Below, piece after piece: positions 3 through 62,860 of a stretch of 62,860 nucleotides of DNA. The notes beneath the pieces were generated by a model, which worked only from the letters and a program-made list of their open reading frames with translations, did not search any database and was not told where the DNA came from. Source of the DNA: a virus. Its lineage: Duplodnaviria; Caudoviricetes. Made by a program: the position numbers and the translations under genes. The first letter of the stretch is position 1; each line of letters begins with the position of its first letter. The stretch spans positions 1 to 62,860 of the IMG/VR virus record IMGVR_UViG_3300032282_002104; one strand, given 5' to 3'.

Positions 3-1556
3 ATTCTGAGTGCTTAACTGCGCAGCACTAACTACTGATACGGCATTACTTACAGTATTAACATGTGTTTCAACTGATGCAACGGCAGCACTGACTACAC
101 TTACTGCATTACTTACTGTGTTTATGGCACTTTGCGCTGCTGCGCTAACGGCACTTATAGTATTGCTTATTGCTGAAATTGCATTGCTTACAACATTAAT
201 AGCACTTTGTAAATTGCTTTTTGCACTTGCTAAATCAGCACTAGTAACTGAAACTGAATTACTAATACCATCAATTCTTACGCTTAGAGCATTATCAGCA
301 CTGGTCATCTGTGCTGAGTTAGTTGCTACCTGAGCACTAACTGTACTTACTGCATTGCTTACAGTATTAATATGACTTTCTAATGCAGCACTTGCTGCTG
401 TTCTTACAGATATTTCATTGCTTAAGGCATTCCAAGTGCTTAACTGGGCAGCACTAACTACGCTAACTGCATTACTGATTGCGTTATCAGCACTGGTCAT
501 CTGTGCTGAGTTAGTTGCTACTTGAGCACTAACTACACTTATGCCATTACCAACTGCACTTACTGCATTGCTTACAGTATTAATATGAGTTTCTAATGCA
601 GCACTTGCTGCTGCTCTTACAGAAATTTCGTTGCTAACTGCATTCCAGGTGCTTAATTGAGCTGCACTTACAACTGATACTGCATTACTGATTGCATTGT
701 CTGCACTGGTCATCTGTGCTGAGTTAGTTGCTACCTGAGCACTAACTACACTAACAGCATTGCTTACAGTATTAATAGCATTAATAACATCTATACCACC
801 TACAACTAGGTTAGAGTTAACATAAAGTTTTTCTCCAATACCTACACCGCCTGCTATTACTAAAGCACCAGAAGTAGTGCTAGAAGATGCAGCAGCATTA
901 GTAACATTAATTCTGCTTGCTGTAGCAATGTTACCACCATTAGTTGTAACTGTTAAATCAATATTAGTACCAGAAGTATTGATACTGTCTGTACCTACTC
1001 TGATGTTACCAACCGTAACATTACCAGCTACAGTTAAAGTGTTTGTTGTTTCGTTATATGCAAGATCTGATTCAGATTTTAATGACCCACCTGTGGTACC
1101 ATATACTACTTGACCTGATGCAACATTACCAATATTGGCACTAAAATTACTTGCTGTTAAATTTCCAACAATAAGATCAGCATAGCCAGATTTGTTTATA
1201 GTTCCAGCAGTTGAACCAGTTTCTGTGGTAAAGGTTGCCATAAAACGATCATTAGACTCGTCCCAAGCAAAAGCCACGTTGGTGTCGGTTCCGCGCTCAA
1301 TTACAATACCAGAGTCTAAGGCAGCAGCTCCTGATTGGCTTCTGGCTAAAACAATTAATGGATCTGCTACTACTGTATTAGTAGTGTCAATAATAGTGGT
1401 AGCACCTTGTACCGTAAGGTTGCCAGTAATAGTTAAGTTACTAGGATAAATTAAGTCTAAATCTAATTTTCCAGCAGTAACTGCATTATTTGCCAGTTTT
1501 GAACCGATAACTTCTAAGTCGGTAATCTGATTGCGTTTAATTCTTGTTATAGACAT
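3..1556 (-). CDS. Tail fibre / virion fibre protein, 3'-truncated by window edge
   Basis: Not in the ORF track because it runs off the left edge. Read manually from ATG at 1556 (MSITRIKRNQITDLEVIGSKLANN...). AAGGA SD and TAAATA upstream. Contains a SGALVIAGGVGIG fibre motif and Ser/Ala/Asn/Val-rich coiled-coil repeats. Confidence 0.8.
   Translation of the reverse strand, partial: MSITRIKRNQITDLEVIGSKLANNAVTAGKLDLDLIYPSNLTITGNLTVQGATTIIDTTNTVVADPLIVLARSQSGAAALDSGIVIERGTDTNVAFAWDESNDRFMATFTTETGSTAGTINKSGYADLIVGNLTASNFSANIGNVASGQVVYGTTGGSLKSESDLAYNETTNTLTVAGNVTVGNIRVGTDSINTSGTNIDLTVTTNGGNIATASRINVTNAAASSSTTSGALVIAGGVGIGEKLYVNSNLVVGGIDVINAINTVSNAVSVVSAQVATNSAQMTSADNAISNAVSVVSAAQLSTWNAVSNEISVRAAASAALETHINTVSNAVSAVGNGISVVSAQVATNSAQMTSADNAISNAVSVVSAAQLSTWNALSNEISVRTAASAALESHINTVSNAVSTVSAQVATNSAQMTSADNALSVRIDGISNSVSVTSADLASAKSNLQSAINVVSNAISAISNTISAVSAAAQSAINTVSNAVSVVSAAVASVETHVNTVSNAVSVVSAAQLSTQN
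290..780 (-). repeat. Three imperfect intragenic repeats (~190-215 bp spacing) encoding SAQVATNSAQMTSADNA(I/L)S
   Basis: cactggtcatctgtgctgagttagttgctac recurs near 299, 491 and 704 with similar flanks. Confidence 0.85.
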
Positions 1557-1583
1557 CTGAGCTATCCTTGGGCGGTATAGCTT

Positions 1584-1590
1584 TATTTAT
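1584..1590 (-). promoter_or_regulatory. T4-type late promoter (ATAAATA)
   Basis: Intergenic, upstream of the fibre gene; matches the gp55 TATAAATA core. Confidence 0.6.
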
Positions 1591-1603
1591 TTAAAATGGC
1601 ATA

Positions 1604-3448
1604 TTAAACGATTCGAGTTTTGTGTACTTTTACAGTATTACCAGTACCAGAACCTACGAAAATTAGCTGGACCGTACTACCTACCATGTCTACCCCTAAC
1701 GTTCCTAAACTACTAGAAGTATATAAAGTAGAGCTAGAAATGTAAGGATTTGTGCCATTATGTACTACCATGGCGTCAAAAACCTGATGGTTTGACCCGT
1801 TGCTTACCTGCACAAAGTACTTGGTACTTCTGTAGCTGGAAGTAGTAAATGTATCTACAATCGTATTACCAGTTCCAGCACTGATTCCGGTCTGATTATA
1901 AGTTATACCAGTGCCCGCTGTTAGATTTAAGTTTGAGTCTATTACCAGTCGTTCTGTACCAGCAGTAGTTATACGAACTTTGTTATCGCCAACAGTGTCT
2001 TCTACAGTAACTATGGTATTAACCGCTTCGTTTTGTATGGTTGGGCCAAGTCCAACTAAACTAGTATTCAAACTACGAATTTCAACAGTATCGATGCTAG
2101 TTGGAGCATCTGCAAAAATAATATCAGCACCGCTTAAGGTATAAGCTACCCCTGGTAACTGCATTACACCGTTTAGTGTTACAATGTAGTTTTCAACTGG
2201 TACTGTTTGACTTGCCGTAAAGGTAGTAGTACTGTTATCGCCCTGGTAAATGTCTAAGCTCATTAAACCTGTTGTTGGGCTGGCATTTATCCAGGTTGCA
2301 CCGTTGTAATATTCTAGGTATCCTGAACTGGTATTATATCTGACATATCCAGCAGTTGCACCGGCTGGTCTAGATCCTTCAGGACCAGCAGGAATTAAAA
2401 TTGCAGTATCAGTATTAATATCCACAATACCATAGTTATTAGGCTGAATTACTACATTGCCGTTAGTATTAGCATTACTTAATGTATCTGTTGTAATGGT
2501 TAACGAAGCAGCTTCTAATCTGCTAGTTGCTGTAATTGTACTGGCATGTATGTTACCTGATACACCTAATCCGCCAGTTACCACTATTGTGCCAGTTGAA
2601 ACATCTGCGCTAGGAGTATTGCCAGTAAAACTGTAAGTTGCGCCACTAAATGTCTGGCTGCTAGTCATAATTACACTAACATGATTGCTTACTACATTTA
2701 TAGCACTTGCTAGGTTGTTATTAACGCTTGTTAGCTGCGCACTAACTGCGCTGACTGCATTACTTAGTTTAGTATCTATGCTTGCTAGATTTGAACTTAT
2801 AGCACTAATTCTGTTGTTAGTGCTAACAACAGCAGCACTCACTGCACTTATAACATTGCTTAAAGCATTGTCTGCGCTGGTCATCTGAGCAGAATTAGCT
2901 GCCACTGCTGAAGTTAAAACACTTATGGTATCTTTGATGTTCATACCTGCTACATTTAATGTAGCACTAACATATAAACTTCCACCTACGCCAACCCCAC
3001 CTGCTACAACTAAAGCACCTGAACTAGTAGTTGACGAGGATGTGGTGGCTGAAACATTAATATTACTAATAACTTGAACATTTGCACCTGCTACTGGACT
3101 CAGAGTTAAATCACCAGAAGTGGTGCTTACATTACTTATTATGGCTTTGGATGTGCTAATATTGCCAGCGTTTAGGTTTCCAGAAACTACTACAATTCCA
3201 GAGCCATTTCCTGACAAATTTAAGTTTGCACTAGCAATTAATGGGCTAATATTGCCTGAATCTAGTACAATATTACCAATCTGAGCATTGCCTGTGATAT
3301 CAAGTACATAGGCAGGAATAGCATTACGGATGCCAATACGATTAGTCGTAACATCAAAATATAGTAAATCGGTTTCAACACTTAAGTTTATGCCCTGTCG
3401 TTCCAGATTGCTCTGGAGCATAGGGCCGCTAATTCTGCCTATAGCCAT
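1604..3448 (-). CDS. Virion structural / fibre protein (614 aa)
   Basis: SGALVVAGGVGVGG repeats, coiled-coil module shared with other fibres, GYVRYNT..LEYYNG and GDNSTTTF motifs typical of large-phage fibre proteins. Confidence 0.7.
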   Translation of the reverse strand: MAIGRISGPMLQSNLERQGINLSVETDLLYFDVTTNRIGIRNAIPAYVLDITGNAQIGNIVLDSGNISPLIASANLNLSGNGSGIVVVSGNLNAGNISTSKAIISNVSTTSGDLTLSPVAGANVQVISNINVSATTSSSTTSSGALVVAGGVGVGGSLYVSATLNVAGMNIKDTISVLTSAVAANSAQMTSADNALSNVISAVSAAVVSTNNRISAISSNLASIDTKLSNAVSAVSAQLTSVNNNLASAINVVSNHVSVIMTSSQTFSGATYSFTGNTPSADVSTGTIVVTGGLGVSGNIHASTITATSRLEAASLTITTDTLSNANTNGNVVIQPNNYGIVDINTDTAILIPAGPEGSRPAGATAGYVRYNTSSGYLEYYNGATWINASPTTGLMSLDIYQGDNSTTTFTASQTVPVENYIVTLNGVMQLPGVAYTLSGADIIFADAPTSIDTVEIRSLNTSLVGLGPTIQNEAVNTIVTVEDTVGDNKVRITTAGTERLVIDSNLNLTAGTGITYNQTGISAGTGNTIVDTFTTSSYRSTKYFVQVSNGSNHQVFDAMVVHNGTNPYISSSTLYTSSSLGTLGVDMVGSTVQLIFVGSGTGNTVKVHKTRIV

Positions 3449-3478
3449 TTCAGGTATCCTTAGCTATATTTAGCTTGA

Positions 3479-3889
3479 TTAGCTAGCGTATCCGTGTAGC
3501 AGAACGATAGTATGACCAAGTGGTGGTGGGCTGGTGAAAGTAATGGTTGTAGAGCCATCAAAAGTAAATGCTACACCAGGATTTTGAAAAACGTTGTTGA
3601 TAAAAACTAAAACTGCCTTTTCCTGTCCAGCAGTATAACTAAAACTCATTGGACTAAAAGTTAAGGTAGAGCTGTCACCAGTAAATGTGTCTTTAGTTAT
3701 AGTAGCAGCACCTGCCGTTCTGAGTGAACTCCAAGTACCATTGATATATGCTTCTAAAACATTAGTTGTAGTATTGTACCGAATCTGACCATTTGAGCTT
3801 GCACTTGGTCTCAGAGTAGTAGCCCCGCCTGGTATTTTTGCGGTAGTTTCGCCTACTTTAATCTTGGTATTTTTAAGGCTGCGTCCCAA
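3479..3889 (-). CDS. Virion structural protein (~136 aa, probable TTG start)
   Basis: The track ORF overlaps the upstream gene. An in-frame TTG at 3889 follows GGAG and the upstream stop. GQIRYNTTTNVLEAY and FTGDSSTLTF motifs are shared with the neighbour. Confidence 0.65.
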   Translation of the reverse strand: MGRSLKNTKIKVGETTAKIPGGATTLRPSASSNGQIRYNTTTNVLEAYINGTWSSLRTAGAATITKDTFTGDSSTLTFSPMSFSYTAGQEKAVLVFINNVFQNPGVAFTFDGSTTITFTSPPPLGHTIVLLHGYAS

Positions 3890-3891
3890 AA

Positions 3892-4206
3892 TTAAACTCC
3901 AACGTAACTTACAGTAGCAGTCACTGAAGAAGCTGAGCTGCAATTTGCGGCTAGTGCATCATTAGTGCCTAAAATTAACTTTTCAACATCCATGATGTAG
4001 GTGTCGGCTGCGGCAATAGTTAATGTTTTGTAAATCTGATTACCGGCTCCGTATGTTCCTGAAGCTGGAATAGCCCAGACATTTATAGTTACATCCCCTG
4101 CGCTAGTATTACAAAAATATACTGTGCTCACTACAGTATTTCCTGAACTTGCATAAATGTTACCAGGTGTTGATGAGTTTGTTAATTGTGTACATTGTAT
4201 TGTCAT
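3892..4206 (-). CDS. Hypothetical virion protein (104 aa, beta-rich)
   Basis: Co-oriented within the structural operon, GGA SD, Thr/Ser-rich. Confidence 0.6.
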   Translation of the reverse strand: MTIQCTQLTNSSTPGNIYASSGNTVVSTVYFCNTSAGDVTINVWAIPASGTYGAGNQIYKTLTIAAADTYIMDVEKLILGTNDALAANCSSASSVTATVSYVGV

Positions 4207-4216
4207 GTTAATTCCG

Positions 4217-4867
4217 TTATAGTATTAATCCAAATAATACGGCTTTGCTTTTGCTTACTAGTTCATCTGATGCAGTTGCATTAACTACATACACACCTGA
4301 CCCGCCGTTGTTAGGTGCTTTAGCATAAAGTTTATTGTAGCTACTTAAGCTACTTGGATCTGATCCCTGATTTTGCAGAGTTAAAACATCATCTAGTTTA
4401 ACTAACCCAGATCCATCTGCATCAATAACAATGTTTCCATTGCTTGCACTGGTTATTTTATGTCCGTTTACATCTAAGTCGCCGCCCAATTGGGGGCTAG
4501 TGTCGTCTACAACATTACCTAATCCACCTGAAGTAATAGGGTTCCAGGTAGAACCATCATTAGTTAATTCCCAACGAGTTAAACTTTCGTTCCATCTAAA
4601 TCCAGTGTTAGATAAACTACCGCGTTCAATTTCAATACCTGAATAGCCCAGGGTAACGCCTGCGCCGGCTTCACCAGAATTTAATACAATAGTATTGTCT
4701 GAAATTAAGCTGTTTGTAGACTCTACACTAGTGGTAGAGCCAATTACGACCAAATTTCCAATTACATTTAAATTGGTTGTTGTAACCACTACGTTTCCGG
4801 CAGTAGTGCCAGAACCGTTTACTGTGGTTATGTTATAATCGCCCTGAATTCGTTTATTAGTAGACAT
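4217..4867 (-). CDS. Virion structural protein (216 aa)
   Basis: GIEIERG..WNE segment related to the fibre at 3..1556; DTSPQLGGDLDVNG motif common in T4-like fibre proteins. Confidence 0.65.
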   Translation of the reverse strand: MSTNKRIQGDYNITTVNGSGTTAGNVVVTTTNLNVIGNLVVIGSTTSVESTNSLISDNTIVLNSGEAGAGVTLGYSGIEIERGSLSNTGFRWNESLTRWELTNDGSTWNPITSGGLGNVVDDTSPQLGGDLDVNGHKITSASNGNIVIDADGSGLVKLDDVLTLQNQGSDPSSLSSYNKLYAKAPNNGGSGVYVVNATASDELVSKSKAVLFGLIL

Positions 4868-4868
4868 A

Positions 4869-5441
4869 TTAGTTATTTATGATGGTTTGGAATTTAGCCA
4901 AATCCAAATGTTCTAAATTTTCTTGCTGTTTTAATTTATTAGGTATCAACGCATTTTCTGGTATAACTCTATGATATCTTACTTTTGGATGATGTTTTAT
5001 AACTGTTAGGGTCTGATCTACCCAGTTTCCGTAATAAGTCTCTGCATCTGAACTCTTTTTGTAATGTGCAGTATCCGCATACATATTATTAAATTTACTG
5101 CTTACTCCAGAGTAATCAAATCCTAAAATGTAAATAGTTTTAATATTGCTTATGGCTGATGCATAGCTTAGTGCAATGGGCCCTGAACTGTATCCATAAT
5201 TTAAAGTAATTTTTTTAGCCCCAGATTCTGGAAGCGGTTTACGGGTGTAAAATTCGTTAATTTTAGCATAACCAGATTTTTGTATTTCCTGGCTAATTCC
5301 ATCGTCTGTAGCAATCAAAACATCAGGAGCAAAATCTCTGTATAAAGCATTACACCCGTAAACTCTGCCCAGAGTTTTCAGTTTGTCTAAATCTATGCCT
5401 TTTCGGCTGGTTCCATTTCCGAGTACGAATGCTATAGCCAT
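4869..5441 (-). CDS. Sialyltransferase/MAF-like (GT29/GT42-type) nucleotide-binding fold protein
   Basis: N-terminal AFVLGNGTS, YGCNALY...PD, SSG and IYILGFD motifs. Confidence 0.55.
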   Translation of the reverse strand: MAIAFVLGNGTSRKGIDLDKLKTLGRVYGCNALYRDFAPDVLIATDDGISQEIQKSGYAKINEFYTRKPLPESGAKKITLNYGYSSGPIALSYASAISNIKTIYILGFDYSGVSSKFNNMYADTAHYKKSSDAETYYGNWVDQTLTVIKHHPKVRYHRVIPENALIPNKLKQQENLEHLDLAKFQTIINN

Positions 5442-5474
5442 AAAAAATCCCTGAGTATTTACCCAGGGATTCTT
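5442..5474 (-). terminator. Intrinsic terminator of the 5493..6128 gene, with a TAAATA late promoter in its loop
   Basis: aatccctg...cagggatt inverted repeat plus minus-strand T run; tattta at 5456-5461. Confidence 0.6.
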
Positions 5475-5492
5475 GTTAGCACCTAAAACTGA

Positions 5493-6128
5493 TTAGGCAG
5501 CGTCTACTCGTACAAAGGCTGTAGTACCAGCAGCTTTATCTGTAGCATAATCATTATTTGTTGTTGCAGCAGCTAACCAATAACGAAACTTGTCTGCGGG
5601 TGTTGAAAAATCATACACCCATTTGTTGGTAATGCGACTTGCATAAAATGTTGAAGCGTCTTGTTTAGTTACAAGAATACTCATTTCATTTGCACCCAAT
5701 GAACCAGATGCTTTATTTGCTAGTGTACAAACGCCAACTAGTGTAACTGTGCCTGATCCTGCACCAGCGGCTTTGGCTACAAAAATACCACCAACTTGTG
5801 CGTTGGATTTTGATGCGCCAACGGCCACCCAGTCGGTTGTGCCTACAGTTAAAATTCTATAAATGCTACCAACGACCATATCCTCGTCATTAATAGCTGT
5901 ACCGCTAGTAACTAGGAATTTCTTTGCACCTTTCTGAGCTAAAATTGAACCAGCAGCGGCTGCTTGTGCTCCAATTTTAACATATGGTCTAATAGTGTTA
6001 CCCGTCTGACTTGTCATACCGCCAGTACCACCAACATTATTACTGCTTATTAAGGTTGGAGACACAAATTTGTCGCGCACCTGTGCGTCTGTAGTAGGGG
6101 TATGTGTAATTTTTAATTTGTTTGCCAT
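5493..6128 (-). CDS. Probable virion structural protein (211 aa)
   Basis: Strong AAGGAG SD, own late promoter and terminator, Ala/Gly/Thr-rich. Confidence 0.6.
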   Translation of the reverse strand: MANKLKITHTPTTDAQVRDKFVSPTLISSNNVGGTGGMTSQTGNTIRPYVKIGAQAAAAGSILAQKGAKKFLVTSGTAINDEDMVVGSIYRILTVGTTDWVAVGASKSNAQVGGIFVAKAAGAGSGTVTLVGVCTLANKASGSLGANEMSILVTKQDASTFYASRITNKWVYDFSTPADKFRYWLAAATTNNDYATDKAAGTTAFVRVDAA

Positions 6129-11500: not shown

Positions 11501-12679
11501 TTAAGAGAATGCTAGGTTTTGTACGTCGATCTCACCAACATAATCTCCAGCATTACCAAGAGATGATGATGTGTTAGTTAGCTCAATGTAACCATATCTG
11601 GTCATAAAGCCAACTACTGGTTCGAAGGTGCTTGGATCTAGAACAACACCGCTGCTCATCAATGGAACGTATGGGCAGTAGAATGCTGCTGCATCTGCTT
11701 CGCTTGAACCTTTGTAACCAACTAGTACTGCTTTGTCGTCGGCAGCATAGCTGTCAACGTATACACGCATAGCACCGTTTAGTGTACCAACAAACTTGGT
11801 GTTTGTTGGAGCCTCGAAAGTACCTTCAGTGGTACGAGCGAATGCTGAGGTGGTTGCGCTCTGCAGAACAGTTAATGCAGCTGAGCTAACAACAGCCCAG
11901 TTACCAGCGCCACGACGTGTACGCTGAGCAATCTTGTTTGCAGTACGGTTGATTAGAACTGCCAAAGCGGCATGCTCGTCACCAACGAATGTAGCGGTAC
12001 CAGAAACTGATGATTGGTCGTAGGTGAACTCGGTTGCTGCTAGACTACGCAAGCTACCTAGAACTTCCTGATCGATTTCAGCGGTAATTTCTTGTGCCAA
12101 TGCTGCCATGATTTCGGCTTCAACATCAAGGCCGTGCATAGCTTGTGCATCCTGAGCAGCTTCGAATGTCCAGCGAGCTGATAGCTTGCGGGTCTTAGCT
12201 TCTACAACTTGCTTTAGGATTTGCACGTTGATCTTACGACCTGGTGAACCTTCTAAAGCGGCTGTGCTATTAGCACGAGCAGTTGTGCTATCGCCAGAAT
12301 AAGCAGTAGCAATTTTGAATGGGCTTAGTGCTTCTTCACCGGCTGTTACGTCGGTGTCGTATGCACTGGTATCATTCAATGTTTCTGCATAACGAACACG
12401 CAGAGTGTGGATCTGTGCAACAGGTCCGGTCATTGGCTGAACGCCAACGATCTCGTTAGCAATTACTGTTGGCATTACACGACGGATTACTGGAAGAATA
12501 ACGCGATTTAAGCTAGCAACGTTTCCTGCGGAAGTTGCGCCAGCTGATGCGGTTTCTACCAAGTGTCTTTTGGTGTTTTCCAAAATAATTGCCATTGTTG
12601 TGCGACGTGAACCATTAAGACCTTCTAACAGGGCTTCCTTGGTTTCGCCCCAACGGCTTTCAAGTAGTTGTTGTGTCAT
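11501..12679 (-). CDS. gp23: Major capsid protein (T4 gp23 family)
   Basis: RRVMP..IA.EIVGVQPMTGP, AKTRKLSARWTFEAAQD, YCPYVPL and GFMTRYG motifs. Confidence 0.97.
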   Translation of the reverse strand: MTQQLLESRWGETKEALLEGLNGSRRTTMAIILENTKRHLVETASAGATSAGNVASLNRVILPVIRRVMPTVIANEIVGVQPMTGPVAQIHTLRVRYAETLNDTSAYDTDVTAGEEALSPFKIATAYSGDSTTARANSTAALEGSPGRKINVQILKQVVEAKTRKLSARWTFEAAQDAQAMHGLDVEAEIMAALAQEITAEIDQEVLGSLRSLAATEFTYDQSSVSGTATFVGDEHAALAVLINRTANKIAQRTRRGAGNWAVVSSAALTVLQSATTSAFARTTEGTFEAPTNTKFVGTLNGAMRVYVDSYAADDKAVLVGYKGSSEADAAAFYCPYVPLMSSGVVLDPSTFEPVVGFMTRYGYIELTNTSSSLGNAGDYVGEIDVQNLAFS

Positions 12680-15291: not shown

Positions 15292-15389
15292 GTAATATTT
15301 CCTTTCATATAGCATTGACTGTAATGATATTTACAGCGTAGTTAAAAAAACACGCTCAAATGCTATGATTTCAGAGCATTCTGAAAGAA

Positions 15390-15632
15390 TTACATGCCTA
15401 GGCCAGCACCACCTGCGGCAGCAGCAGTACCCATACCATACTGCTTTTGAATGGTTTCCAACTTTTGTTTCATTTCGATCTTGCGCTGATCGTTCATAAG
15501 TCGGAGTTTGTTGATTTGTTCAAGTGTAAGACGAGTTTTGCGTGTGTCAGACATCTTTAACTGACTATTGTCGTTAGCAGCATCATAACGAGCATCAACT
15601 TCAACATTTTCAAAAAGGTCTTGTATGAACAT
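15390..15632 (-). CDS. Small head-module protein (~80 aa)
   Basis: MFIQDLFE...DTRKTRLTLEQINKLR; ATG 15632 follows TAAATA at 15641-15646. The longer track ORF overlaps the portal gene. Confidence 0.7.
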   Translation of the reverse strand: MFIQDLFENVEVDARYDAANDNSQLKMSDTRKTRLTLEQINKLRLMNDQRKIEMKQKLETIQKQYGMGTAAAAGGAGLGM

Positions 15633-15660
15633 AGTATAGTTATTTACACCAAAATGGCAA

Positions 15661-22555: not shown

Positions 22556-23404
22556 ATGCAAAATAACAGCTCAAATCCTTTGGCGAAACATTTTCGTCAG
22601 CCCGCTCTGTACATTAAACTACCTAGTTCTGGTAGATTTTGGCCTGATGGGGCTATTGAAATACCTATGAATGGAGAGATTCCAGTCTATCCCATGACTG
22701 CCAAAGACGAGATTATGATCCGTACCCCAGATGCCTTGCTTAACGGTGCTGGAACTGTTTCAGTAATTCAGAGTTGCTGCCCTAGCATTAAAGATGCCTG
22801 GAATATGCCTAGCATAGATCTAGATACTGTGCTAATTGCTATTAGAATAGCAAGTTATGGACCAACCATGGATGTTAGCACCAAATGTCCAAAATGCGAT
22901 CATTCCAACGAAGTTAGCATACCATTGCAAAACTGTTTGGATACTATTCGTATGCCTGACTTTGACACTGGTATTATGGTAGACGAGCTAAAGTTTAAAT
23001 TGAAGCCACAAAGTTATTTTAGTAATAACAAAACGGCACAAATTAACTTTGAACAGCAACAATCAATCAGAGCCATAAGTGACCCAGACATTCCTAATGA
23101 TCAAAGACAGGCAGTATTTAATGAACATCTGGAAAAGTTAGTTACATTAAACATTAATAGTTTTACAGAAACAACCCAGAGCATTACTATGTCAGATGGT
23201 ACCAGGGTTGATGATCCTGAGTATATCAGAGAGTTTTATAATAATGCTGACAATCGTGTGTTTAAAGCACTACAAGCATATATTACTGAACTAGGACAAG
23301 ACTTACAAATTAAGCCATTTAAACTACAATGCGAGGAATGTGAACATGAATTTGATTTCACGCTAACATTTGATTGGGCAAATTTTTTCGACAACGGCTT
23401 TTGA
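22556..23404 (+). CDS. gp26: Baseplate hub assembly protein (T4 gp26-like) with two CxxC pairs
   Basis: LPS.G..., PMTAKDE, DLDTVLIAIRIASYG, CPKC and CEEC motifs, ends ANFF. Confidence 0.75.
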   Translation: MQNNSSNPLAKHFRQPALYIKLPSSGRFWPDGAIEIPMNGEIPVYPMTAKDEIMIRTPDALLNGAGTVSVIQSCCPSIKDAWNMPSIDLDTVLIAIRIASYGPTMDVSTKCPKCDHSNEVSIPLQNCLDTIRMPDFDTGIMVDELKFKLKPQSYFSNNKTAQINFEQQQSIRAISDPDIPNDQRQAVFNEHLEKLVTLNINSFTETTQSITMSDGTRVDDPEYIREFYNNADNRVFKALQAYITELGQDLQIKPFKLQCEECEHEFDFTLTFDWANFFDNGF

Positions 23405-23619
23405 TTTTAGATCGTGAAGGTGTAATGAACCTCTTAGACACCTACGATAAAGAAACAAAAGCCATAAAAAACGAAATATTAAAAATGTGTTGGTATATGC
23501 GGGGTGGGATTACCTACGACCAAGGCATGGATCTAAGCATGACTGAAAGAACCATGATAGGTAAAATCATCGAAGATAACATGGAAACAACTAAGAAGAG
23601 CGGGTTGCCATTCTTCTAA
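23374..23619 (+). CDS. gp51-like small baseplate/tail assembly protein (frameshift extension, or independent start at 23425)
   Basis: CWYMRGGITY...LS..ER motif; overlaps the gp26-like end in the -1 frame. Confidence 0.65.
   Translation: MGKFFRQRLLILDREGVMNLLDTYDKETKAIKNEILKMCWYMRGGITYDQGMDLSMTERTMIGKIIEDNMETTKKSGLPFF
23380..23389 (+). other. Candidate -1 ribosomal frameshift site (A AAT TTT TTC)
   Basis: Two overlapping in-frame X XXY YYZ heptamers; the -1 frame is the open downstream ORF. Confidence 0.55.
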
Positions 23620-24020
23620 TACTACTAGGTATGCTTCGCATACCTGCTTCATCGCTTACGCTCGAAGCATTTTGTTTTTGTTTCTAATTGATATCATCCA
23701 GATCTTGCAGTCATATTTCGCCTGAAACCAGGCGAAAATTGAAGACATCATCCGAGTCGTACAATCATCTATTCACAAGAGATTCATGTTTCCATGACGG
23801 AGGCGGTTGACCGGTACCCCCCTACTCTAGCTTCGCATATCAACGGAACCCTAGTTACCCGGAATAGACCCAAGTCCTATAAGCAGCGGTTGTATCTGTT
23901 TCACAGAGCCGCAATCATTTATACTCTAAAGTTAAGTTTAACTTGCAGCGACCAAGATTTTCCGAACTGGGTCTTGCACCAGTCCTCAATGGTGGTCGAG
24001 CTACCCCGACCAAACAATGC
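23620..24020 (-). ncRNA. Candidate large structured non-coding RNA (or replication-origin element)
   Basis: Only long non-coding gap in the window; visibly GC-richer; many hairpins, GNRA loops and long-range complementary segments. Family not recognised. Confidence 0.5.
23645..23684 (+). terminator. Probable intrinsic terminator of the gp26/gp51-like unit
   Basis: tgcttc...gaagca stem followed by ttttgtttttgtttc. Confidence 0.55.
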
Positions 24021-24022
24021 TG

Positions 24023-24526
24023 CTATGTAACTACTGTAAAAAAGGATTCTGTGGGTAAATCTAGAAATGTGCCAAGTTTATATGTGAAATACTGTTTATA
24101 ATTGATAGTTGATGTGATGCCTATGATAGGTTCTGCTAACAATACAAATTCACTTACATTATTGTATTTGATTATCAGTGCCATTTTTTTGCCTGAGGTA
24201 TTTGAGTCTTGCTGTGCCTGTTCGAGCCAATCGTCCCATTGTTTTACTTCTTGCGCTAAAATACTTTGTAAACTTGGCGCAGTTTTGTAATGCTTGCACT
24301 CGATGCTGTAAACGAAATTTCTGGGACAGATTAAATCACCAAAGATAGCATAATCTAAACTATGAGTCTGACTACGCTGCACATTCGAACCGCCAAAGTA
24401 GCTACCACTATCAGGATTTCTTCTGAAACCAGACTCAATGCCTAGGTATTCAGCGAACCTTTCACTTAATAGCTTGGCTACTTTGCGTTCAAATGTATTA
24501 CCTTTGTTCTTACCGTTTACAGCCAT
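24023..24526 (-). CDS. PD-(D/E)XK nuclease, Holliday-junction-resolvase-like
   Basis: KNKGNTFERKVA, GDLI.P, SIECKHY and W..Q motifs. Confidence 0.75.
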   Translation of the reverse strand: MAVNGKNKGNTFERKVAKLLSERFAEYLGIESGFRRNPDSGSYFGGSNVQRSQTHSLDYAIFGDLICPRNFVYSIECKHYKTAPSLQSILAQEVKQWDDWLEQAQQDSNTSGKKMALIIKYNNVSEFVLLAEPIIGITSTINYKQYFTYKLGTFLDLPTESFFTVVT

Positions 24527-24540
24527 ACAAGTAGTTATGC

Positions 24541-24726
24541 TTACTTAGCCGTCATGGCGTTTTTCTTGTCCTGAATCTCTGATCTGCGCAATTTAATAGC
24601 TTTGCTTAGATCACCCAATGCCTTACGAGCACGGCTACTAGCAGCCTTAACGCCCTTGACTTCAAACTTTTCATGCTCTGCTTTGTAAGTTTCTACTAGT
24701 TCTAAGATGGTATCATGTGTTGACAT
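24541..24726 (-). CDS. Histone H1-like (Hc1-type) small basic protein
   Basis: KG.KAASSRARKAL..L.K motif; AGGAG SD. Confidence 0.65.
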   Translation of the reverse strand: MSTHDTILELVETYKAEHEKFEVKGVKAASSRARKALGDLSKAIKLRRSEIQDKKNAMTAK

Positions 24727-24737
24727 TAATGTCTCCT

Positions 24738-26510
24738 TTAAGTTATTTCCACATCTGTTGCGTATGTTGTATAGCCATTTTCTTTAACTACACGCAATAC
24801 ATTGTTTACACGGCTACTTAGTTCATCCTTATGACTAACTAACCAAATGCTCTTGTTTGCTTCACGGCTCATTTTCTTCAAAATAGCCAAAGCACTGTCT
24901 GTTCCCATCTGGTCCATGCCTGAATCCATGAGCTCATCTACAAACAATAAGTTCACGGGCTGGTACAGGCTTTCCCAAACATCCCTGAATGCCCAACTTA
25001 GGCTCAGGATTAATCTGTTACGCTCACCACGACTTAGGTTATCAAAATCTAACTCACGGCCTAGTTCCTGAATATCCACAGTTAAATCGTTTAGGAAGGT
25101 AACTGTATGCGGCAATCCAATCTTATCCAAATAATGACTTAACCTACCATTCAAATAACTTAAGTTCTGATCAATAATTCGTTTTCTAATAAAACTGTCT
25201 TTGCTGGTTAACAACTTACTCAGGAACTCCTGATGATTTAGCATACGAGTTAGGTTGTTAATAACATCGTAATCAATTTCAGCCAGAGCTTGTTGTTCCA
25301 TTTCAGTAATTTGCTCAGCATAAGGATCATGCTCTGCTTGTTTGTTAAGCATCTGACTTTTTAAATTCTCCAGAGTCATTCTATGATTATGTGCTTCTTG
25401 TTCAGAATCATAATATACTGTGGGTGCAACACCAGGCTCAATTAACTTATAAGCCTCTGAAAGTTCAGATATAGTATCCTGGGTTGCTGTTAAATGTGTC
25501 TGATTGGTATGTAAGTCTGTCTTTTTAGTGTTTAACAGTTCGTCGTGTGTTTTGTCGTGAACGTCTTGTCCACAAGCATAACACTTGTGCTCTGCTAAAC
25601 TGTTTATTTCTGTTTCCAGCTTAGTGATTTGCTTTTGTGTTTTAGTAACATCAAGCTCTAGTCTGGACATTTCTGTTTTTAATGTACTACGCTGACCAGT
25701 TTTTTCATTAAAACTGGCCAAGGCTTTATGAGCAGCAATTTCTACATCAATATCAATGTTACTAAGTTCAGCAATACTACGTTCAAACTTGGTAATGTCT
25801 TCATCGTGTTTGCTTTGCCAGAGTGTTTGTCTGCGTTTTAAACTATTGATCTGATCTTGTATACGAGTATTGGCCTCTTGCGATGCTTTAATTTTATACT
25901 CTTCTTGTTGTATCAGATCTTTAGTTTCTTTGATTTGTAGTTTAAGGTTCTCTGCTTTTTCACTTAGCAAAGTAATGCCCAACAACTGTTCAATAATGGC
26001 TCTCTGATCAGCAGCCTTCAAACTCAGGAATGGTTCTGTATAGGTGTTTAGGGCTACAATATGCTTAAACATTTCATGACTCATGTTAAGCAATCGTTCT
26101 ATTTCGCCTTGTGTTTCACGGCTATCGCCCTGACTATTATCGTCTTCGTTAGTCTTTTCTACGCTGTCTACATAAAAGCGCAAGACATTGGGTTTACGAC
26201 CGCGCTCAATTTTATATTGTATACCAGCACATTCAAAGTCCACAGTCACTAACATATTCTTGGTGTTAGTGCGGTTAATTAGGTTATCTTTTTTAATATT
26301 GCTTAGTGCTTGTCCGTATAGAGCATAGCTCAGAGCATTGATTAATGTAGTCTTACCAGTACCATTGCGGCTACCGGTATCATCGCCGCCTAGGTCTAGG
26401 TTAGAGCCTAAGACCAGAGTCAGATCCTGACGATCAAAGTTTACACCCTGAGTTACATTACCTATGCTTAGAAAGTTTTTTGCTGTTATGTTAGTTACTT
26501 TAAACATCAA
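24738..26510 (-). CDS. gp46: Recombination endonuclease ATPase subunit (gp46 / SbcC / Rad50)
   Basis: NFLSIGN, Walker A NGTGKT, CYAC zinc hook, LSRGE signature, Walker B LFVDE, SH. Confidence 0.95.
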   Translation of the reverse strand: MMFKVTNITAKNFLSIGNVTQGVNFDRQDLTLVLGSNLDLGGDDTGSRNGTGKTTLINALSYALYGQALSNIKKDNLINRTNTKNMLVTVDFECAGIQYKIERGRKPNVLRFYVDSVEKTNEDDNSQGDSRETQGEIERLLNMSHEMFKHIVALNTYTEPFLSLKAADQRAIIEQLLGITLLSEKAENLKLQIKETKDLIQQEEYKIKASQEANTRIQDQINSLKRRQTLWQSKHDEDITKFERSIAELSNIDIDVEIAAHKALASFNEKTGQRSTLKTEMSRLELDVTKTQKQITKLETEINSLAEHKCYACGQDVHDKTHDELLNTKKTDLHTNQTHLTATQDTISELSEAYKLIEPGVAPTVYYDSEQEAHNHRMTLENLKSQMLNKQAEHDPYAEQITEMEQQALAEIDYDVINNLTRMLNHQEFLSKLLTSKDSFIRKRIIDQNLSYLNGRLSHYLDKIGLPHTVTFLNDLTVDIQELGRELDFDNLSRGERNRLILSLSWAFRDVWESLYQPVNLLFVDELMDSGMDQMGTDSALAILKKMSREANKSIWLVSHKDELSSRVNNVLRVVKENGYTTYATDVEIT

Positions 26511-27523
26511 AGGTGCCTGTAAATTTCCATAAGGATATTGCGGTCATAGTGTTCAGATTCAATGTTAGATAGTTGATTAGTAACAATCTGATCTACGCTC
26601 TCAAATTTAATCTCAGTGTTATATTCGGTAACATTGGGATCGGTATTCTTTTGTGGCAGCAGAGTAATCTCTCTGAGGTTGTAGGTGTTTACGAAAGTCT
26701 CTTTAATAAAGTTAGCTTCTTCGTAACTAATTTCTACATCCAGGTTTACTCTGACATGCATATTGGGTTTAAGGACCTGGTCGGCTACATTTAAAATTTC
26801 TGACAGACCAAATACTCTGTATGTGGGTTGATCTGGCCAGGTGTGATATTCTGGATCTTTACCCCATTCAATTATAGTAAGGCCGCGAGCATCGTCGCCA
26901 GCATCGGCGTAGTTATGTGGGAAACAGTTGCCAATGTATGTAATATTGTTCTGAGTTTGTCGTTTATGGAAATGCCCAGTAAACACATTCTCAATATGCT
27001 GAAAATTGTCTCTGCGTATCTCACCATGGTCTGGCATAGCTACCATGGCGTTCATTAAGTATCCAGGCAATTCAAAGTGTCCAAATACATAACGTCCTTT
27101 TACCTTAGGAATCCTTTTATGGTCATCACCCACAAGCCAAGGACAGATAACCACATCACCGTCAGCAAACCAATTGTTACAAATTTGAACATTACTGAGG
27201 TGTTTAGCCCATTCCACACTTTGTATATCTCGTTTGTCACGATAATACAGATCATGGTTGCCAGGAATAAAATAAGTTCGTTCAAAGTTGGCATTTAAAT
27301 GCTCCAAAGCCTGTAGGCTATAGTTTAAAGTTAAAATATTAATAGCAGCACGGTTGTTATGCCAGTCACCCAGGAAGAAGCAGGTCTCACAGCCTTCGGC
27401 TTTCGCTTTGGCTGTGGCCCACTTTACGAAATTTAAACAATCTTCGTTATGTATAATACTGTTGGACTTTAATCCAAAATGGATGTCAGTGAACAGTGCT
27501 GCTTTTTTAAATAGGTTACTCAT
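26507..27523 (-). CDS. gp47: Recombination endonuclease nuclease subunit (gp47 / SbcD / Mre11)
   Basis: DIHFG, GDW, GNHD and GHFH metallophosphoesterase motifs; overlaps the gp46 start. Confidence 0.95.
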   Translation of the reverse strand: MSNLFKKAALFTDIHFGLKSNSIIHNEDCLNFVKWATAKAKAEGCETCFFLGDWHNNRAAINILTLNYSLQALEHLNANFERTYFIPGNHDLYYRDKRDIQSVEWAKHLSNVQICNNWFADGDVVICPWLVGDDHKRIPKVKGRYVFGHFELPGYLMNAMVAMPDHGEIRRDNFQHIENVFTGHFHKRQTQNNITYIGNCFPHNYADAGDDARGLTIIEWGKDPEYHTWPDQPTYRVFGLSEILNVADQVLKPNMHVRVNLDVEISYEEANFIKETFVNTYNLREITLLPQKNTDPNVTEYNTEIKFESVDQIVTNQLSNIESEHYDRNILMEIYRHL

Positions 27524-27573: not shown

Positions 27574-28404
27574 TTATTCGTGGTCGTAACTACCTTCGTT
27601 TTGACGAGTATAACTTGGGTTATAGTTATTCATTTGTAGGATATCATCACGAATATTTTGGTTACGTTTTTCAATGTTTAGTACACGAGTAAAACTATTA
27701 GTAATTACAGCCGTATAGTAAGCGAATGGGTTAGCACTCTTGCTTTCATCAAATTGTAATCCAATCTGACTCAACTGTAGCAGGGCTTGACTACGCATTT
27801 CTTCGTTGTAGGTATAGCCTCTCCAGTTACTGCGAGTAGCATAACGCTCACATAACTTCATAAACATATGAGCTAATTTATTAGTCATAGCACCATGATC
27901 CTTGCTGAATTTACCAGACTTCATAGGACCAATCCAATGGCTTTTGCCAACTAACATGGGTTCGCCTTCAGCATTAATTCTGTAGTGATGGAATGGTGGG
28001 AAGTTTACTTTCAGATACTTAATTGGTGCAATTTCTTCGTCGTATTCTGTAACAATTTGTTCGTCTGGTTCAACTTCTACTTTCTTGAGCTCTTCCTGAG
28101 GGATATGTTCCCAGGTCATGATTCTGAACACAATGTCTGTATCTTCGATATCTTTGGGTTTCATTTTGAATTGATCTAACTTAACTGTAGGATCAGTAGC
28201 ATGAGCTAAATCGTATGCTGCTCTGGCTAACCTGTCAGCTCTGTTTTCACGAGCTTGTTTAATATTTTTCTTATTGATTTGGTCTACACTTTTAAGTATG
28301 ATGTCATAGTCCGAATCACTAGGAGTTTTAAAACTACAGTATGTTTTCTTGCTTTTGTGTATCTCTGATAAGATGTCGCGATTGTTAAGGTAATTCGTAC
28401 GCAT
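27574..28404 (-). CDS. gp55: Late-transcription sigma factor (T4 gp55 family)
   Basis: NYLNN..., NWRGYTYNEEM and FDESKSANPFAYYT...NSF.R....EK motifs. Confidence 0.9.
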   Translation of the reverse strand: MRTNYLNNRDILSEIHKSKKTYCSFKTPSDSDYDIILKSVDQINKKNIKQARENRADRLARAAYDLAHATDPTVKLDQFKMKPKDIEDTDIVFRIMTWEHIPQEELKKVEVEPDEQIVTEYDEEIAPIKYLKVNFPPFHHYRINAEGEPMLVGKSHWIGPMKSGKFSKDHGAMTNKLAHMFMKLCERYATRSNWRGYTYNEEMRSQALLQLSQIGLQFDESKSANPFAYYTAVITNSFTRVLNIEKRNQNIRDDILQMNNYNPSYTRQNEGSYDHE

Positions 28405-61966: not shown

Positions 61967-61969
61967 ATA
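61962..61969 (+). promoter_or_regulatory. T4-type late promoter TATAAATA overlapping the upstream stop codon
   Basis: Perfect consensus. Confidence 0.7.
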
Positions 61970-61988
61970 CATGAACAGGTTAGAATAA

Positions 61989-62858
61989 ATGACATACGCT
62001 GCCGGGCAAACAATTCTTAGAGATGAATATAATATTTTCGCAACTGGTGCGGCAGATGGAACAGCTACCAATTCAGGAAATATTAACAATATCTGGGGAG
62101 CCGGAAATGGCAACTCAGGCTACGGACAAAGCACCACATTAACCGCAGTTAGTACTGGTAATACAATCACTGCCACCCAATGGGCCAACATGGTTGCCCG
62201 TTTGGATAGTATTAGTAAACATCAGACTGGTTCAGGCTACACTCCAGCAACAGGCCCAAACCCTATTACAGCTGGTAGTACAATTACTGCTGTATCAGAT
62301 TTAGCGACCAAACTATCTACTCTGTATACTAACAGATTGGTCTATACCGCTCAGGGTACTAATGCTACAAGCACAACTACTCCAGCAACCTGGAATAGTG
62401 CAACACCAACAACCTTTACCATAGTAAGAACATTTACTTTTGCTGACGAAAACTCAGCCAGATACTTTTTTAATTCTGGTGGACAAATTGGTATAACTTT
62501 TGCAACTGCTAGTGCTGCTGACACTGACAAAGAAATTAAAATGGCAGAACTAATTGCCAGTGTAGGTACTCATTATCTCAGAGCTAATAGCTGTACCAGA
62601 TCAGGTACAGGTAATACTCAGACAACTTTTAACTCAGCTACTGGTTATTACGACCTAACTCTTACGGCAACCACTGCTTTAAAGTTAACTGAGGATACTG
62701 CACCTTATACTACAAACACCATAGATATAAAGTGGAGTACCAATGCTCTTAATGCTTCTGGATTGGGTGGAAAAGGCAATATTATAACCTGTACTATTGT
62801 ATTAACTGAAAATGCAACTGACGACTTTAATGATGCATTTAACTTCACAATTACCACC
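61989..62858 (+). CDS. Virion structural protein, 3'-truncated by window edge
   Basis: Read manually: MTYAAGQTILRDEYNIFATG...WGAGNGNSGYGQ...RYFFNSGGQI; open to the window end. Confidence 0.75.
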   Translation, partial: MTYAAGQTILRDEYNIFATGAADGTATNSGNINNIWGAGNGNSGYGQSTTLTAVSTGNTITATQWANMVARLDSISKHQTGSGYTPATGPNPITAGSTITAVSDLATKLSTLYTNRLVYTAQGTNATSTTTPATWNSATPTTFTIVRTFTFADENSARYFFNSGGQIGITFATASAADTDKEIKMAELIASVGTHYLRANSCTRSGTGNTQTTFNSATGYYDLTLTATTALKLTEDTAPYTTNTIDIKWSTNALNASGLGGKGNIITCTIVLTENATDDFNDAFNFTITT

Positions 62859-62860
62859 AC

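Follow-up and report, generated by a model that had tools for sequence, protein, structure and literature searches.

The gap between convergent genes

Open reading frame (ORF) calling on the window, that is, the whole 62,860-nt stretch of DNA analysed, left a gap at positions 23620-24022 that splits convergent genes. To its left, on the plus strand, lie a baseplate hub gene and a conserved 81-aa ORF. To its right, a minus-strand block containing genes for a late sigma factor, gp47- and gp46-like proteins, a 61-aa Hc1-like protein and a PDDEXK nuclease ends at 24023, so that the stop codon of the nuclease gene abuts the element described here. The main features of the locus were as follows:

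22556-23404, plus strand: baseplate hub gene (PF12322, E 2e-17)
23374-23619, plus strand: conserved 81-aa ORF, convergent and downstream of the element; overlaps or follows the hub gene
23627-24022, minus strand: whole RNA element, made of a core (24021 to 23691, ~330 nt), an A-rich linker and two 3' hairpins
24023-24526, minus strand: upstream nuclease gene, 167 aa (PDDEXK_15 / RusA-like; PF24608, E 5.2e-25; phrog_244, E 7.9e-20)
24738-26510, minus strand: SbcC/gp46-like gene
26507-27523, minus strand: SbcD/gp47-like gene
27574-28404, minus strand: late sigma factor gene

The window record is estimated to be 18% complete (IMG/VR), and the isolates with the nearest gp47 are PA5oct-like Pseudomonas jumbo phages, at 50% amino acid identity. 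The initial annotation had described the gap as richer in GC than its surroundings and as the only long one in the genome. The first point was confirmed, with a GC content of 0.454 in the gap compared to 0.388 for the whole window, and sliding-window values of 0.47-0.485 at 23700-23999 against 0.325-0.41 in the flanks. The second was roughly right, but a crude gene call leaves other ORF-poor stretches at 334-876, 15316-15660 and 61967-62860; these are probably coding, since one frame of each is free of stop codons over 180, 89 and 290 codons, respectively.

By eye, the gap had not been matched to RNase P, group I introns or GOLLD/ROOL, and a search with the 4227 covariance models of Rfam 15 agreed with this, producing no matches in the whole window at gathering thresholds. 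At E <= 10, the element region gave only scores of 16.3 bits (threshold 74.2) and 13.7 bits (threshold 35.6), and the loci of five relatives gave one 18-bit score (threshold 39.5). ARAGORN detected no tRNA or tmRNA genes in the window, and a simple scan of the window for terminators and promoters returned no terminator (the P9 hairpin described below was not flagged) and no above-chance promoter.

Comparative evidence for a structured minus-strand RNA

The folding energy of the minus strand was -127.4 kcal/mol (z = -3.37), and none of 100 dinucleotide shuffles was as stable; for the plus strand, z was -1.99 and two of 100 shuffles were as stable. This signal is modest, and the decisive evidence is comparative. 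A first collection of loci was retrieved via the PDDEXK protein (L001-L011) and contained one RNA homologue, L001 (nhmmer E 2.6e-26), whose alignment with the window showed invariant blocks alternating with variable blocks that carry 1-nt indels. A search with the RNA profile found no homologue in L002-L011, where the PDDEXK gene also lies beside gp46, several of these loci being on contigs of 490-518 kb. A 34-nt pattern from the central block was present exactly in 77 IMG/VR contigs, and a looser pattern with the centre left free in at least 120. A profile of the core matched 166 of 176 stored loci, 128 of them at full length, which yielded 96 distinct full-length sequences; as the collection relied on core-derived patterns, the apparent invariance of the core blocks is inflated. 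The window itself matched the profile at 24022-23693 (nhmmer E 4.6e-84).

Of the 65 pairs that RNAalifold proposed from 44 sequences, 35 had compensatory changes. A curated model of 18 helices and 82 pairs was evaluated on the 96 distinct sequences, aligned with L-INS-i, with P1 omitted because its two length variants were misaligned. In this model 95.5% of the cells were canonical and compensatory changes were observed at 51 of the 82 pairs. In 300 column shuffles, the canonical share averaged 84.7% (maximum 85.3%) and the compensatory pairs 26 (maximum 31), and sliding the 3' partners by 1-3 columns left 38-41% canonical cells and 8-22 compensatory pairs; both controls ignore phylogeny and are supportive, not a formal test. 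Over the curated pairs of the 96 sequences, 641 cells were G-U and 87 were A-C, and the canonical share was 88.4% when the opposite strand was taken as the RNA. The excess of G-U over A-C assigns the fold to the minus strand of the window, as had been proposed. Conservation and covariation in relatives, named beforehand as the check on a multi-domain RNA in this strand, were thus found, and the element is a structured RNA in which covariation supports at least 12 helices and one pseudoknot. It has the generic marks of a structured non-coding RNA, with compensatory changes above controls, strand-specific G-U pairs and no coding signal. Its parts, from 5' to 3', are listed here:

23947-24021, minus strand: 5' domain, in which S1 encloses P1, P2 and P2a
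24019-24021 with 23947-23949, minus strand: closing stem S1 (97% canonical, 2 of 3 pairs compensatory)
24011-23994, minus strand: P1, which folds as a hairpin of 7 bp in 91 of 96 family members (52 different hairpin sequences)
23990-23993 with 23951-23954, minus strand: P2 (96% canonical, 3 of 4 compensatory)
23979-23985 with 23964-23970, minus strand: P2a (96-97% canonical, 5 of 6 compensatory)
23922-23938, minus strand: P3 hairpin (87% canonical, 4 of 4 compensatory)
23886-23912, minus strand: P4/P4b hairpin with purine-rich internal loop, covarying (P4 99.7% canonical, 3 of 4 compensatory; P4b 100% canonical, 1 of 3 compensatory)
23852-23879, minus strand: P5 hairpin (P5a/P5b 97-99% canonical, 7 of 10 pairs compensatory)
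23863-23867 (P5 loop) with 23769-23773 (~95 nt downstream), minus strand: pseudoknot PK1, covarying
23799-23851, minus strand: hyper-conserved centre, source of the 34-nt pattern
23822-23851, minus strand: hyper-conserved junction within the centre
23839-23844 with 23806-23811, minus strand: possible pseudoknot PK2, invariant
23826-23830 with 23698-23702 (the first 5 nt of twin motif copy 2), minus strand: candidate long-range helix LR1 (99.6% canonical, no compensatory change)
23817-23821 with 23799-23803, inner 23811-23813 with 23804-23806, minus strand: P6 hairpin
23784-23797, minus strand: P7, variable hairpin with GNRA tetraloop (93% canonical, shuffles at most 67%; 4 of 4 compensatory)
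23745-23756, minus strand: twin motif copy 1 (10 nt; DNA consensus CTCRGAYRAW)
23715-23738, minus strand: P8 hairpin between the twin motifs (10 pairs, 93% canonical, 3 compensatory)
23691-23702, minus strand: twin motif copy 2 (10 nt; DNA consensus TCTRGAYRAW)
23646-23685, no strand assigned: P9 hairpin (23646-23670) and a tract that is A-rich on the minus strand
23627-23645, minus strand: terminal hairpin T (8 pairs, 93% canonical, 5 compensatory)

All six hairpins named in the initial annotation were on the minus strand and correspond to the family helices P1, P2a, P4, P6, P7 and P8. The long-range pairing it had drawn between 23862-23868 and 23768-23774 is PK1, which is 97% canonical (shuffles at most 89%) with compensatory changes at 4 of 5 pairs. 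A second one, between 23950-23958 and 23702-23712, had to be abandoned: these bases sit in helices that covary locally (P2 and S1), and most family members lack complementarity between the proposed partners. For the suggested pairing of the TCAA loop with an upstream GTTGA, the two stretches are invariant and complementary in 96 of 96 sequences, which is compatible with pairing, and a sixth flanking pair is U-G in 77, C-G in 14, U-A in 1 and a non-pair in 3 of the 95 sequences tallied. LR1, PK2 and P6b belong to the invariant centre, beyond the reach of covariation. P6a is 100% canonical, with a closing pair that is G-C in 60 sequences and A-U in 36. The P7 loop is GNRA in 70 of 96 sequences (GAAA in the window) on a freely varying stem. 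The 9-nt loop of P3 is nearly invariant in the family, with one base that differs in the window; a kissing dimer through this loop, palindromic in most members, was rejected, as neither the window nor L001 keeps the palindrome. Another nine candidate helices (c1-c9), which included a pairing of the junction with motif 1, a pairing between the stretches 5' of the two twin motifs and helices of the invariant centre taken from RNAalifold, did not rise above shuffled controls, and c3 was only 46% canonical. No supported helix joins the 5' and 3' ends of the element; S1 closes only the first 75 nt.

The two 3' hairpins are variable and covary. P9a is 89% canonical (shuffles at most 67%) with compensatory changes at 6 of 6 pairs, and in the plus strand the P9 stem is followed by a T-run at 23670-23684, so read from its sequence it looks like an intrinsic-terminator-like site of the convergent operon of the hub and 81-aa genes. 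In most relatives a short U-run comes after hairpin T, but the window lacks it. The last ~45 nt (P9 and T) look like terminators common to the convergent operon and outside the functional core, so the functional core is ~24021-23691.

Distribution, expression and neighbouring genes

The RNA occurs once in the window and once in each of five large related records (177-317 kb, the largest 89% complete). It is carried by uncultivated phages of aquatic sites, lakes among them, which have genomes of ~350 kb and are distantly T4-like. Among 185,579 prokaryote species, each represented by a single genome, neither pattern had a match, and blastn with the elements of the window and of a second locus (L019) had none among 50,697 isolate phage records. 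In the syntenic region of Pseudomonas phage PA5oct there was no profile match and only a sub-threshold Rfam score; PA5oct has a 660-nt unannotated gap there, with long hairpins. Owing to this absence from the searched isolate phages and prokaryote genomes, the family looks confined to one uncultivated phage clade.

Ten sequencing runs labelled as RNA contain part of the sequence words of the element, and contigs from four metatranscriptome runs (four studies: salt marsh, freshwater, aquatic and lake water) cover it with 80-99% likeness; these RNA-library data are assembled contigs, which carry no strand, ends or level and may include DNA carry-over. A 3' end deduced from contig cover, which stops near L019:6039 in three runs, was discarded, as the contigs continue into unlike sequence.

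The position of the RNA is fixed relative to its neighbours. Wherever gp46 was found it lay upstream in the same strand (108 of 108 loci), and wherever the 81-aa ORF or the hub gene was found they lay downstream in the opposite one (114 of 114 and 103 of 103 loci, respectively). The spacers range from 469 to 5715 nt between the RNA and gp46 and from 67 to 3623 nt between the RNA and the 81-aa ORF, and they hold changing cargo, such as radical-SAM genes in L019. The usual upstream neighbour is a SegE-like GIY-YIG ORF (PF19835, E 6.5e-33), instead of which the window has the PDDEXK gene. In 103 loci the SegE-like ORF ends at most ~60 nt from the start of the RNA, and a further 32 loci have it within 2.5 kb; a SegE-like or PDDEXK match was present in 138 of the 141 loci with at least 600 nt of upstream sequence. 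In 32 loci, unrelated ORFs of 296-337 aa with no Pfam family are placed between the nuclease and the RNA.

Median identity to L019 was 78% (nt) for the RNA core, 61% (aa) for gp46 (n=54) and 49% (aa) for the hub (n=58); the SegE-like protein, with a median amino acid identity of 78%, also exceeds gp46 and hub. Between L037 and L019, the RNA is 99% identical, SegE 96% and the hub 55%, so that the neighbours form a mosaic. In the RNA-library contigs, SegE homologues pass into unrelated sequence exactly at the stop codon (loose ends at 5636-5642), which implies that the nuclease gene also exists elsewhere without the RNA. In these sequence patterns the SegE-like gene resembles a mobile homing gene. 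The SegB homing endonuclease beside the T4 tRNA genes is described as marking a locus of preferential inheritance and recombination (PMC2330249), and nuclease genes are reported at exchange boundaries (PMC10055350); the behaviour of the SegE-like gene fits both descriptions. The T4 tRNA and stable-RNA region shares with our locus a free-standing GIY-YIG gene beside conserved RNA genes in a recombination locus (PMC2330249), but the phage RNA is a single large non-tRNA. The RNA marks a hot spot for recombination and probably for homing. In 12 of the 77 exact-pattern loci, the whole contig ends within 280 nt of the core match, which suggests that metagenome assemblies break at the shared RNA sequence.

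The same neighbourhood could be read as a working pair, with the RNA acting as cofactor, guide, inhibitor or expression control of the upstream nuclease (compare omega RNAs and type III RNA antitoxins). The SegE-like ORF is little more than a catalytic domain (mostly 141-146 aa, 142 aa in 69 loci, of which the domain takes 123 positions), it adjoins the RNA in 103 loci, a nuclease match is nearly always present, and two equivalent motifs in the RNA would suit a dimeric protein. Nevertheless, we regard such a partnership as unlikely. The RNA has no hypervariable guide-like segment, its variable parts being covarying hairpins; the slot holds two unrelated nuclease folds and, in 32 loci, the unrelated 296-337 aa ORFs intervene; L002-L011 have the PDDEXK gene beside gp46 without the RNA, SegE homologues occur apart from it in the RNA-library contigs, and a SegE gene more conserved than its flanks, with mosaic neighbours, follows the pattern of a mobile homing gene. 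The omega RNAs of IscB/TnpB (HEARO-type) are likewise large structured RNAs directly beside a small nuclease gene, but here the nucleases belong to other families (GIY-YIG, PDDEXK), the RNA lacks both a guide and an Rfam match, and its association with the nuclease can be broken; the omega RNA type was rejected for the phage RNA on these neighbours and on the absence of a guide segment.

Twin motifs and the possible role of the RNA

The twin motifs flank P8 and have three variable positions, at which seven combinations of states occur. The two copies agree at all three positions in 95 of 96 sequences, and they likewise have in common a rarer fourth change (T to C). The mutual covariation scores of the motifs are 125, 115 and 76, compared with at most 57 with any other column. 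Antiparallel pairing of the motifs, whether ordinary or by tandem G-A pairs, was rejected because it leaves the identical states unexplained; two sites read by one partner predict them. This sequence behaviour suggests that the motifs are two sites for one co-evolving partner, and the lock-step could instead reflect a protein binding to DNA or an unusual or parallel RNA-RNA geometry. An anti-Shine-Dalgarno or Shine-Dalgarno mimic was discarded for lack of conservation, a stop-codon mimic is broken by CGA variants, and the GGA of a CsrA site occurs in no more than 42 of 96 sequences.

The triplet that changes in lock-step is ATG, ATA or ACG, followed by an invariant A, and in T-box leaders, which sense tRNA, the specifier codon is followed by a purine. 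The likeness may serve as a lead only, and the phage RNA differs from T-box leaders in not being a 5' leader, in having two sites instead of one and in lacking an Rfam T-box match. Paired codon-like specifiers holding two tRNA anticodon loops, in a phage RNA or ribozyme that handles tRNA, are in our opinion quite unlikely; tRNA matches in the five related records numbered 0, 5, 12, 23 and 38.

The locus contains a structured RNA gene that is widespread, single-copy and strand-specific, that keeps a fixed syntenic place and whose hyper-conserved centre is pseudoknotted. The joint explanation that we consider probable, with moderate confidence, is a stand-alone non-coding RNA gene that acts in trans, has two docking sites and has nucleases settled beside it. 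The RNA would be transcribed co-directionally with the gp46 block, starting at a promoter inside the upstream nuclease gene or reached by read-through from that gene, and would end at the T hairpin, with P9 and the A-rich tract doubling as terminator of the opposite operon. It would act in trans as a folded RNA or an RNA-protein particle, in which the invariant pseudoknotted centre would be the functional core and the twin motifs of the 3' domain equivalent docking sites for two copies of a co-evolving partner, which might be a dimeric protein or an RNA, for example the anticodon loop of a tRNA. SegE-like GIY-YIG genes would have settled beside the RNA as homing endonucleases do beside conserved targets, because the RNA evolves so slowly.

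We consider it very unlikely that the RNA is a far-diverged member of a large ribozyme class already described (group I intron-like or RNase P-like) that the Rfam models miss. In its size, pseudoknots, GNRA loop and invariant junctions the RNA does look like a ribozyme core, it has a GIY-YIG gene beside it as phage group I introns do, and an RNA that processes tRNA would make sense in related records with up to 38 tRNA genes. But no Rfam 15 family was found in the window or the five relatives, with no match at E <= 10 for the group I intron or the bacterial and archaeal RNase P models; exons are lacking, relatives differ in their upstream genes, no helix closes the two ends, and the 317 kb, 89% complete record with 0 tRNA matches keeps the RNA. 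A group I intron was rejected in particular because, besides having no exons, the element starts after the stop codons of differing upstream ORFs and ends at hairpins that face the convergent gene. T4-like group I introns with GIY-YIG genes share with the phage RNA a structured RNA of a few hundred nt, the adjoining endonuclease gene, pseudoknots and a GNRA loop, but the phage RNA interrupts no gene and its endonuclease gene lies outside and upstream, not in a loop. Likenesses to RNase P motifs noted by eye were also dropped, their pairings (among c1-c9) not being reproducible.

The element might alternatively be no more than a cis-acting end of two operons, with a bidirectional terminator in a long 3' UTR where the convergent genes meet. 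Convergent genes do flank it, P9 and the A-rich tract read as a terminator in the plus strand, and T is a palindromic hairpin. This is highly improbable, as terminators account for ~45-60 nt and not for a 330-nt core with at least 12 covarying helices and a pseudoknot. The core has 30-nt invariant blocks and is more conserved than the flanking proteins, and its sequence is kept while the genes on both sides change across spacers of very different length (469-5715 and 67-3623 nt).

Conservation at the DNA level, as a replication origin, a packaging or recombination site, or with the twin motifs as iteron-like sites bound by a protein or a homing-endonuclease target, would agree with direct repeats in lock-step, typical where one DNA-binding protein reads them, and with the recombination boundary seen between L037 and L019. 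Compensatory changes, the G-U excess (641 vs 87) and a GNRA loop retained on a variable stem point instead to single-stranded RNA and make a DNA-level site most improbable. A protein-coding role for the ATG-started 78-codon ORF that the window does have at 23794-24030 in the plus strand can be discarded with near certainty: it belongs to no Pfam or PHROG family, only 4 of 96 members have an ORF of at least 78 aa (median longest ORF, 46 aa), and of 1283 indel runs relative to the window 163 are multiples of three and 1120 are not. The coding-type conservation of this ORF that had been named beforehand as a refutation of the RNA is thus absent.

Returning to the stand-alone RNA gene that we favour, its likeness to RNase P, group I introns and ROOL, raised in the initial annotation, is fair for scale and goes no further. 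Covariance models for GOLLD, ROOL, OLE, raiA and HEARO had no match in the window or the five relatives. GOLLD and ROOL are also large, of many helices, borne by phages or prophages, found in metagenomes and obscure in function, and the phage RNA is also pseudoknotted; it differs in being smaller (~330-400 nt), in having no Rfam match and in having no adjoining tRNA gene in the window. GOLLD and ROOL are described as forming homo-oligomers (PMC12286853). Our literature search found no paper describing this RNA, and terms for it were absent from two 2026 preprints on intergenic elements. A set of 10,006 viral candidate RNAs in IMG/VR, with a mean length of 67 nt, has been reported (PMC10690425), and its supplement may list fragments of this RNA among the short candidates. 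The RNA looks undescribed and is a candidate for a new class of functional RNA.

The main limitation is that no cultured host-phage pair carries the RNA. The lock-step twin motifs offer a concrete experimental handle. Large (>300 nt) bacterial and phage RNAs with elaborate conserved folds and an obscure function are rare, and OLE, GOLLD, ROOL, HEARO/omega RNA and raiA each opened new biochemistry. Public viromes contain this one in abundance, with at least 166 loci, and it is conserved above the structural and recombination proteins of the phages that carry it.

The P9 hairpin and syntenic gaps in relatives

P9, the hairpin near the 3' end of the minus-strand structured RNA, can also be read from the opposite side, where the baseplate-hub gene and an 81-aa ORF run towards the RNA.

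23646-23685, read on the plus strand: P9 hairpin followed by a T-run

Because of this arrangement, the sequence would likely act as an intrinsic terminator of the hub/81-aa operon. A simple terminator scan did not flag the site.

Gaps were also detected at the RNA's position or in its syntenic region in two relatives.

L008 (related jumbo-phage contig), 4499-5302: about 800 nt without any 60-aa ORF
L177 (Pseudomonas phage PA5oct, NC_071039.1), 11881-12543: unannotated gap of about 660 nt

The first lies downstream of a PDDEXK nuclease gene and ahead of the hub gene, in synteny with the RNA, and comparison with the RNA revealed no similarity. The PA5oct gap contains inverted repeats of 18 and 26 nt, has a very low folding energy and produced no family match.

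Variable genes and tRNA arrays

Between gp46 and the RNA, gene content varies among related loci.

24541-24726, minus strand: Hc1-type (chlamydial histone H1-like) gene, 61 aa (PF07432, E 2.5e-12)
L019 (related locus), 3324-5179: two radical-SAM/SPASM genes

The Hc1-type gene, placed between gp46 and the PDDEXK gene in the window, was found in only 4/165 related loci. The two radical-SAM/SPASM genes form an insertion in the interval that separates gp46 from a SegE-like gene, and the equivalent variable island of L075 carries a B12-binding radical-SAM gene. Large tRNA gene arrays were found in two related phage records, both fragments about 51% complete.

G004 (record of L029), 155671-179417: 38 matches
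G005, 54844-79961: 23 matches

A 317-kb related phage record gave 0 tRNA matches.

Contig ends, the SegE-like gene and recombination

Among 77 IMG/VR contigs exactly matching a 34-nt core pattern, 12 were loci consisting of a whole contig that terminates within 280 nt of the invariant core (e.g. L016, L032, L035, L065 and L073), as would be expected if this shared sequence caused breaks when mixed phage strains are assembled.

L019, 5214-5642: SegE-like GIY-YIG endonuclease ORF (equivalent position in 103 loci)

This ORF encodes 141-146 aa in most loci, and in the 103 loci the RNA starts at most about 60 nt beyond its end. Its conservation exceeds that of the core genes on either side, and its stop codon forms the exact junction with unrelated sequence in contigs from RNA libraries, as a mobile homing gene would be expected to behave. 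Identity to L019 shifts sharply along the locus in L037, L031 and L070, with contrasts such as 99% in the RNA versus 55% in the hub gene, or 65% in gp46 versus 98% in the SegE-like gene; these changes place recombination breakpoints at the RNA/nuclease island.
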